Shown here piece after piece: positions 59,561 through 59,915 of a DNA stretch of 64,000 nucleotides. The notes under the pieces are model-generated. The model had not been told where the DNA came from and did no database searches. It saw nothing but the letters and a program-made list of their open reading frames with translations. The translations under genes and the position numbers were made by a program. Location: the NCBI GenBank assembly GCA_964636145.1, contig CAZWPD010000004.1, forward strand, positions 15,488 to 79,487, written 5' to 3'. Positions within the stretch are counted from its first letter, which is position 1. Each line of letters begins with the position of its first letter. The DNA is from an uncultured Coxiellaceae bacterium. GTDB taxonomy: Bacteria; Pseudomonadota; Gammaproteobacteria; DSM-16500.

Positions 59561-59592
59561 AAAAAAAAGGGCAGTATTTTGGAATACTGCCC
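59561..59592 (-). terminator. Intrinsic terminator of the sRNA
   Basis: GGGCAGUAUU-CCAA-AAUACUGCCC-U8. Confidence 0.9.
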
Positions 59593-59703
59593 ACATGCTC
59601 AACTCAGGTCTGGCAATCCTTGCCAAAAATACCGTCCCTGAACACACAAAACGAGGAGTGGTTGCACAAGTCCTTTTTTGCGAGAGTAGCCATCCGTGAC
59701 TAC
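59561..59703 (-). ncRNA. CsrB/RsmY/RsmZ-like CsrA-sponging sRNA (about 143 nt)
   Basis: TATACT -10 at 59716-59711; 5' hairpin GUAGUC-ACGGAU-GGCUAC; further AAGGAC, CAGGGAC and GGCAAGGAUUGCC; terminator at 3' end. Confidence 0.8.
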
Positions 59704-59897
59704 AAGATCGAGTATACAGAGCTGATTAATGAATGGTATGGGCACAATAGGTGCGATTGTTTGTGATTGATGCATGATGTGCTCGAATTTATACTGATTT
59801 ACACTGAAATATATCGTAAAATCATATAGATGTGAGATGGTTGGCGGGTGCCGCTGGGATTGTCGCGGACGATGTCTAGCTAATCTCCGTATTTCAC

Positions 59898-59915
59898 TGT
59901 GAGTAATTGCTTACA
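59898..59915. promoter_or_regulatory. GacA/UvrY/LetA-type binding palindrome
   Basis: TGTGAG-TAATTG-CTTACA versus consensus TGTAAG-N6-CTTACA; about 195 bp upstream of the sRNA +1. Confidence 0.75.

Follow-up and report, generated by a model that had tools for sequence, protein, structure and literature searches.

The topA–argS intergenic region of the 64,000-nucleotide stretch of DNA analyzed here (the window) very probably contains the gene for a GacA/UvrY-activated, CsrA-sequestering small regulatory RNA (sRNA) of the Csr/Rsm type. This reading, put forward in the original prediction, was supported by what was observed in the window and in the genomes compared with it, namely the sequence elements of the locus, their conservation, the covariation of the RNA helices, the uniqueness of the upstream box and its fixed spacing, and a gene set that includes gacA, csrA, and a kinase candidate. 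Five sequence criteria were proposed by Kulkarni et al. 2006 as defining CsrA-regulating RNAs (PMC1488887), and the locus agreed with all five.

Location and Anatomy of the Predicted sRNA Gene

The predicted sRNA gene, ca. 143–145 nt in length (59561..59705), was located on the minus strand between topA (57069-59363, + strand) and argS (60038-61792, + strand). It was oriented divergently from argS and convergently with topA, and no gene followed it on its own strand. No conserved ORF overlapping the sRNA was found in the ORF list or in the 30-sequence alignment, indicating that the gene is intergenic. The 5′ end of the sRNA was placed from the position of the -10 hexamer and the point where conservation starts. 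The elements of the locus, in the direction of predicted transcription, were as follows.

59882..59932, minus strand: extended upstream activating sequence, consisting of CAAATTACCC (59932-59923), N7, the palindrome, N9, and GGAGATT (59888-59882)
59898..59915, minus strand: predicted GacA/UvrY box TGTAAGCAATTACTCACA, an 18-bp palindrome with an 11/12 consensus match
59820..59832, minus strand: weak IHF-like site CATCTATATGATT, midway between box and promoter (7/9 match)
59711..59716, minus strand: -10 hexamer TATACT, without a clear -35
59561..59705, minus strand: predicted sRNA of ca. 143–145 nt, 5′ end placed at 59704 ± 1
59686..59703, minus strand: 5′ hairpin GUAGUC-ACGGAU-GGCUAC (helix 1), with GGA-1 (59695-59693) in the loop CACGGAU
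59671..59673, minus strand: GGA-2, in the context AAA[A/U]GGA[C/U], the triplet kept in 30/30 aligned sequences
59642..59666, minus strand: GGA-less core UGCAACCACUCCUCGUUUUGUGUGU, with the anti-Shine-Dalgarno-like CUCCUC
59635..59637, minus strand: GGA-3, in the context CA[G/A/U]GGA[C/U]G, the triplet invariant and N variable
59611..59625, minus strand: hairpin UGGCA-AGGAU-UGCCA (helix 3), with GGA-4 at 59619-59617
59561..59592, minus strand: intrinsic terminator GGGCAGUAUU-CCAA-AAUACUGCCC (stem 59592-59569; helix 4), then U8 (59568-59561)

This anatomy was largely that of the original prediction. The elements described there were all recovered: the palindrome, at 59915-59898 (found to match TGTAAG-N6-CTTACA at 11 of 12 positions); the TATACT hexamer, now placed at 59716-59711; the 5′ hairpin, at 59703-59686; three further GGA triplets, at 59673-59671, 59637-59635, and 59619-59617; the terminator, with its stem at 59592-59569 and T8 at 59568-59561; and the divergent orientation relative to argS (argS on the + strand, the sRNA on the - strand). 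Only the AT-rich spacer that it had placed after the palindrome did not hold, as the sequence from the box to the -10 hexamer was not especially AT-rich in this genome.

The Rho-independent terminator was also found by a terminator scan, as a 10-bp stem followed by T8. Within 145 nt there were four ANGGA motifs, against an expectation of 0.31 calculated from their density in the window (Poisson p ~3e-4), and only 28 of 25,542 sliding 145-nt windows contained four of them. A(N)GGA motifs were therefore concentrated in the sRNA, at an absolute number that is low for the class. The single-sequence fold was modestly better than that of shuffled sequence (z = -2.4).

The gap from the topA stop to the sRNA terminator was filled by two inverted, GC-rich palindromic units of ca. 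30 nt (GCCCGG.CGCGCTTTTTGCGGCCGGG), at 59371-59403 and 59491-59523. The unit was present at at least 40 further sites in the genome and is therefore considered a REP- or MITE-like dispersed repeat; its first copy also scored as a terminator-like hairpin for topA.

Conservation and Secondary Structure

By BLAST, 22 of 24 same-genus genomes had an sRNA body of 79–98% nucleotide identity; the aligned segment began immediately ahead of the predicted start and extended to the terminator, while the 200 nt upstream could not be aligned. The flanking ArgS and TopA proteins were merely 52–89% identical across the same loci, suggesting that the sRNA is under stronger constraint than its housekeeping neighbors. 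Synteny was also maintained, with topA and argS on either side of the sRNA in all cases in which the fetched flanks were long enough; argS was present in 48 and topA in 36 of the 54 type-1 locus records, which include some contigs that were fetched twice.

The sRNA alignment comprised 24 type-1 and 6 type-2 copies (30 sequences). All four GGA triplets were invariant in 30/30 sequences, and the base preceding each of them was variable, a pattern that would be expected of A(N)GGA CsrA sites. Across the family, the GGA-1 loop read CA[C/A/U]GGAU and the GGA-4 loop CA[A/U/C]GGA[U/A], and three of the four motifs of the sRNA fitted CANGGA, which is the form of high-affinity CsrA sites in the SELEX and RsmE literature.

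Covariation was counted over the alignment on a manually specified structure, in which 96% of alignment cells were paired. Double compensatory changes occurred at 11 base pairs, a number reached by none of 500 shuffles, and the number of covarying pairs dropped to 2–5 when partners were slid by 1–3 columns. Three helices contributed to this count: the 5′ hairpin (helix 1) showed double compensatory changes in 3/7 pairs, with 95.7% of cells paired; helix 3 (UGGCA/UGCCA) showed double changes in 3/5 pairs, with 89.9% of cells paired; and the terminator (helix 4) showed compensatory changes in 5/7 counted pairs. GGA-1 and GGA-4 were therefore both located in the loops of covariation-supported helices. 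In the single-sequence fold, GGA-2 paired with the core. The same fold placed a long-range helix (GUUCAGG/CCUGAGU) at GGA-3, and this helix was rejected because it was left uncompensated when the N of GGA-3 changed.

Distribution and Host

A covariance model of the RNA (R1) scored the copy in the window at 157.6 bits and found it to be the only copy in the genome; neither a second copy nor a type-2 paralogue was found with R1 in this 111-contig assembly. Among the genomes of the group, which corresponds to one order in the genome taxonomy used (86 species genomes), R1 matched 82 of 86, including all 56 high-quality genomes, and all 21 genera. Genomes of the order often carried 2–6 copies, some of them in tandem, which would match the sibling habit of Csr/Rsm RNAs. 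Outside the order, R1 matched in only 5 genomes when 300 genomes of the class were sampled; one of these matches was solid and contained the core, four were weak, and three of the weak matches, once aligned, were short GGA-hairpin RNAs without the core.

Exact-pattern matches in named records all came from uncultured Gammaproteobacteria or "uncultured Coxiellaceae" (metagenomes or single cells). The same-genus genome BBSC-SA02 carries a 16S gene that is 94.6% identical to that of Aquicella siphonis (PMC7453286), and on the basis of this one named relative, the host was taken to be an Aquicella-related member of Legionellales (in the NCBI sense). The Aquicella-related group is probably amoeba-associated. 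In the literature searched, no link of Aquicella to a Csr RNA was found.

A type-2 paralogue was observed in other genomes of the genus (L030, L034, L041, L043, L045, and L053) and was absent from this assembly. It had the 5′ GGA hairpin and the invariant core in common with the type-1 sRNA, and differed in having 5–6 GGA motifs, its own terminator GGGCAGCCCCAAAACUGCCC, and a position adjoining neither argS nor topA. In 4 of these 6 loci, the full box at -204 was replaced by a TGTAAG-like half-site at ca. -60 to -69.

The GGA-Less Core

The most conserved segment of the sRNA was its 25-nt core UGCAACCACUCCUCGUUUUGUGUGU (59666-59642), which contains no GGA. The core was identical in 19/19 orthologues found by BLAST, a count from which the loci found by pattern search were left out, as their core is identical by construction. 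It was common to the type-2 paralogues, and CCACUCCUCGUUUUG was also present in the out-of-order homologue G300, which belongs to another family. The core looks like a conserved single-stranded sequence. RNAalifold folded it as a hairpin, which we do not claim, because 8/8 pairs were invariant (no covariation) and distant copies broke pairs. The sequence CACUCCUC resembles the anti-Shine-Dalgarno end of 16S rRNA.

The sponge model leaves the core unexplained, and the core may reflect a second function, by base pairing. Exact complementarity to the core over 10–12 nt was seen at several ribosome-binding sites of the genome. The csrA leader (contig C62) contained AACGAGGCGGTGGTT, complementary to the core, ca. 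55 nt before the ATG, with a predicted duplex energy of -23.1 kcal/mol that placed it in the top 0.85% of 2238 leaders. In relatives, just the 8-mer AAACGRGG persisted in the csrA leader, and most duplex energies were at background; we therefore treat the proposed csrA pairing as a weak lead, not a finding. A dual-function RNA, combining CsrA titration with seed pairing of the core CCACUCCUCGUUUUG, as an anti-Shine-Dalgarno mimic, to specific mRNA ribosome-binding sites, is in our estimation rather unlikely. A possible seed target would be the csrA leader, and if so, the core would provide a direct feedback arm in the GacA-Rsm-CsrA circuit across the order.

The same observations could be taken further, to a GacA-activated sRNA that acts mainly as an antisense RNA through the anti-Shine-Dalgarno-like core CCACUCCUCGUUUUG on target ribosome-binding sites, with the GGA motifs being secondary or structural. 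Such an RNA would be consistent with the core being the most conserved part, unsupported as a helix, and present in both paralogue types and in the out-of-order homologue, as well as with the complementary ribosome-binding sites and the rank of the csrA leader by duplex energy. A precedent exists in Coxiella CbsR12, which binds CsrA and pairs with mRNAs (bioRxiv 10.1101/679134). However, the four GGA triplets were as invariant as the core, with variable neighbors, and two of them, in the loops of covarying hairpins, had the CANGGA context that is typical of CsrA sites. Moreover, chance complementarity to Shine-Dalgarno-like sequences is expected of an anti-Shine-Dalgarno-like motif, and pairing with the csrA leader was not maintained in most relatives, where energies were near background. 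A mainly antisense role is thus quite improbable, and sequestration of CsrA remains the preferred reading.

Partner Genes

The genome encoded both CsrA and a GacA/UvrY orthologue, the partners expected for a CsrA-regulating sRNA. A UvrY/SirA/GacA equivalog was found on contig C52, at 329 bits against the NF007018 cut-off of 280. The region C52:13202-16374 had the order gacA(uvrY)-uvrC-pgsA, with uvrC and pgsA directly after gacA and the same order in E. coli; uvrY-uvrC-pgsA is the classical arrangement. The N-terminus of CsrA (first 30 residues) was found at the end of contig C62, where csrA is truncated by the contig end, and 56 of the 61 genomes examined from the family had csrA. A 1105-residue open frame encoded a BarA-like hybrid kinase, whose kinase, receiver, and HPt parts matched the BarA model at 488 bits; as this score is below the equivalog cut-off, the protein is considered a candidate. 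The genome also contained 12 GerE-type HTH matches.

Upstream Region and Predicted Promoter

A weight matrix was built from the orthologous boxes, with the window's box left out. By this matrix, the window's box was the best site in the 2.46-Mb genome, at 25.9 bits, compared with 16.8 for the next locus, and no second strong GacA box was found in the genome. Of 43 distinct orthologous loci, 26 had a box of at least 10/12, and for 22 of these boxes the center was located 202–207 nt upstream of the 5′ hairpin. The intervening sequence could not be aligned, indicating that the length of the spacer, not its sequence, is conserved between species. Because the distance from the box to the sRNA was fixed (sd 5.7), while that from the box to the argS ATG ranged from 25 to 994, the box was assigned to the promoter of the sRNA and not to argS. 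The locus therefore carried an upstream site of the GacA/UvrY type, which outscored every other box of the genome, kept its distance from the RNA in orthologues, and lay far upstream, as at csrB.

Boxes C85, C111, C9, and C33, the next best in the scan, were set aside, as no GGA-rich, terminated transcript followed any of them. The second-best box-like palindrome, TATGAGCAATTACTCACA (contig C111:538-555), was located between two divergent genes, one of which resembles, by eye, a TetR-family regulator. This palindrome is probably the operator of that TetR-like regulator and not a GacA site.

Conservation extended beyond the palindrome. Among 25 orthologues, the consensus of the extended box was aatT..CCat-N6-TGTAAGC.tTT.CTtACA-N9-gGGA.ATt, which is roughly symmetric about the box. 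An IHF-like sequence, YAANNNNTTGATW, matching at 8/9 or better, was present at -123 ± 2 in 17 of these 25 orthologues; the copy in the window matched at 7/9. In the majority of the 43 distinct loci, the hairpin was preceded at 6–7 nt by TATACT or TATAAT, with TATACT in 28 of 43, and no conserved -35 was found across these loci. A generic promoter scan missed the TATACT hexamer because there was no -35, and its absence would fit an activator-dependent promoter.

A similar layout is known at E. coli csrB, where UvrY binds a palindrome centered at -183, as determined by ChIP-exo and footprinting, and where an IHF site is located between the palindrome and the promoter, with IHF needed for full activation (PMC4682653). 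That palindrome, TGTGAGAGATCTCTTACA, and the box described here, centered at ca. -203, are both 18 bp long and far upstream. The E. coli K-12 csrB upstream region reads AAATACCCCATctggtTGTGAGAGATCTCTTACAgactctgtaGGAGATcgcc (L104 ~680-735, minus strand), and the outer flanks AAATaCCCCAT ... GGAGAT were conserved in both. GGAGAT followed the two boxes at the same offset, and the CCAT element lay one base nearer to the box in E. coli than here. A perfect IHF consensus is located ca. 84 bp downstream of the box center in E. coli csrB, compared with ca. 81 bp for the IHF-like site here. Down to such details, the promoter architecture of the locus is therefore of the csrB type.

Some 6–9 bp outside the 18-bp palindrome, this lineage and E. 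coli csrB also had outer arms of the form AAATnnCCCAT ... GGGAnATT in common.

The number of GerE-type HTH matches in the genome and the position of the outer arms, outside the classical 18-bp GacA box, would allow for a transcribed CsrA-binding element without GacA control, with the palindrome serving another regulator of the LuxR/NarL type. We consider this highly improbable, as the consensus over 18 bp is that of the GacA/UvrY box, the entire 50-bp arrangement with its outer arms recurs at E. coli csrB, which has been footprinted with UvrY (PMC4682653), and a true UvrY/GacA equivalog with uvrC synteny is present. An element unrelated to CsrA, either a regulatory element of argS/topA, as the palindrome 123 nt before the argS ATG might suggest, or a small protein encoded by a 58-aa ATG ORF that overlaps the region on the minus strand (59599-59775), is barely credible, since conservation started exactly after the -10 hexamer and stopped at the terminator, the box kept its distance to the RNA and not to argS (25 to 994 nt), topA converges on the locus with a terminator-like hairpin of its own, and the ORF was rejected as a gene because it starts in the non-conserved spacer and orthologues carried frame-breaking 1- and 2-nt indels within the conserved body. 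A GacA/UvrY-activated sRNA that sequesters CsrA therefore remains the best explanation of the locus.

Comparison with Known Csr/Rsm Systems

The Rfam Csr/Rsm models (CsrB, CsrC, RsmY, PrrB_RsmZ, and RsmX) gave no match at gathering score in the window, and a search of 59350-60050 at E ≤ 10 gave no Csr/Rsm match, only a terminator-like match to sbrA. The comparison with CsrB, RsmY, RsmZ, and RsmX that the original prediction had proposed was thus negative at both gathering and permissive thresholds, bearing out its guess that the RNA is too diverged for the standard models. As there was no Rfam match, the sRNA was regarded as a sequence family that is new within a known class, with Legionella RsmY/Z and Coxiella CbsR1/CbsR12 being compared by description only. 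In its predicted function and in the architecture of its promoter, it resembles CsrB, RsmY, and RsmZ.

Like this RNA, CsrB of E. coli and Salmonella has a 5′ hairpin with a GGA in its loop, an intrinsic terminator, and a promoter without a strong -35. However, CsrB is 369 nt long with ca. 20 GGA, compared with 145 nt and four GGA here; the two RNA bodies had no homology detectable with the Rfam CsrB model, and nothing equivalent to the 25-nt core exists in CsrB.

RsmY, RsmZ, and RsmX of Pseudomonas share with this locus the TGTAAG-N6-CTTACA upstream sequence and GGA in hairpin loops, and they are similar to this family in size (110–130 nt) and in having multiple paralogues. The Pseudomonas Rsm box is located near the promoter, at ca. 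-70, a position that resembles that of the type-2 paralogue of relatives and not that of this gene. The Rfam models of Pseudomonas RsmY, RsmZ, and RsmX gave no match to this RNA.

In Coxiella burnetii, CbsR12 is ca. 170–200 nt in length, and we know of no upstream GacA box shown for it. Its four sites suffice for CsrA-2 binding, and it also base-pairs with mRNAs; CbsR1, from the same genus, combines five ANGGA motifs with a putative LetA site (bioRxiv 10.1101/679134). We regard CbsR12 as the best precedent for a four-site sponge with an added base-pairing function. RsmY, RsmZ, and RsmX of the LetS/LetA-Rsm-CsrA system of Legionella pneumophila are short sponges with few GGA that are activated by the GacA orthologue, as is predicted for the sRNA described here, and both they and this family have sibling copies in many genomes (PMC5338858). 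Their hosts are related, both being Legionellales in the NCBI sense.

Proposed Mechanism and Significance

From the sequence evidence, we infer transcription, GacA dependence, CsrA binding, and downstream physiology. A BarA/GacS/LetS-like hybrid kinase would phosphorylate the response regulator of the UvrY/GacA family, which would then bind the far-upstream palindrome, centered ca. 202–204 nt before the start. A DNA bend at the IHF-like site in mid-spacer would probably aid the regulator, as at E. coli csrB, and binding of the regulator would activate the promoter through its -10, without a -35. The resulting 145-nt RNA would present four A(N)GGA motifs, including two in conserved hairpin loops, and titrate CsrA dimers off mRNA leaders. 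Four sites would hold approximately two CsrA dimers, which is at the low end for a sponge. Titration would relieve CsrA-mediated translational control, releasing the mRNAs that CsrA represses. Control of a transmissive phase or of effectors, as in Legionella, would be an extrapolation by analogy.

Given the relationship to Legionella, a specialist would anticipate an RNA of this kind, and its presence is a modest surprise. Its value would be in the order-wide definition of the family, the deep conservation of an extended csrB-type upstream sequence, and the unexplained core. The family, of well over 100 copies, could join Rfam. The csrB-type upstream activating sequence proved wider than 18 bp, with a ca. 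50-bp layout that includes the outer arms and extends from E. coli to this distant lineage, and the role of the outer arms is thereby testable in E. coli itself. The invariant, GGA-less core provides a concrete lead toward a second function of a CsrA sponge. For uncultured Aquicella-related bacteria, the sRNA would supply the missing RNA component of the GacS/GacA-Csr switch.
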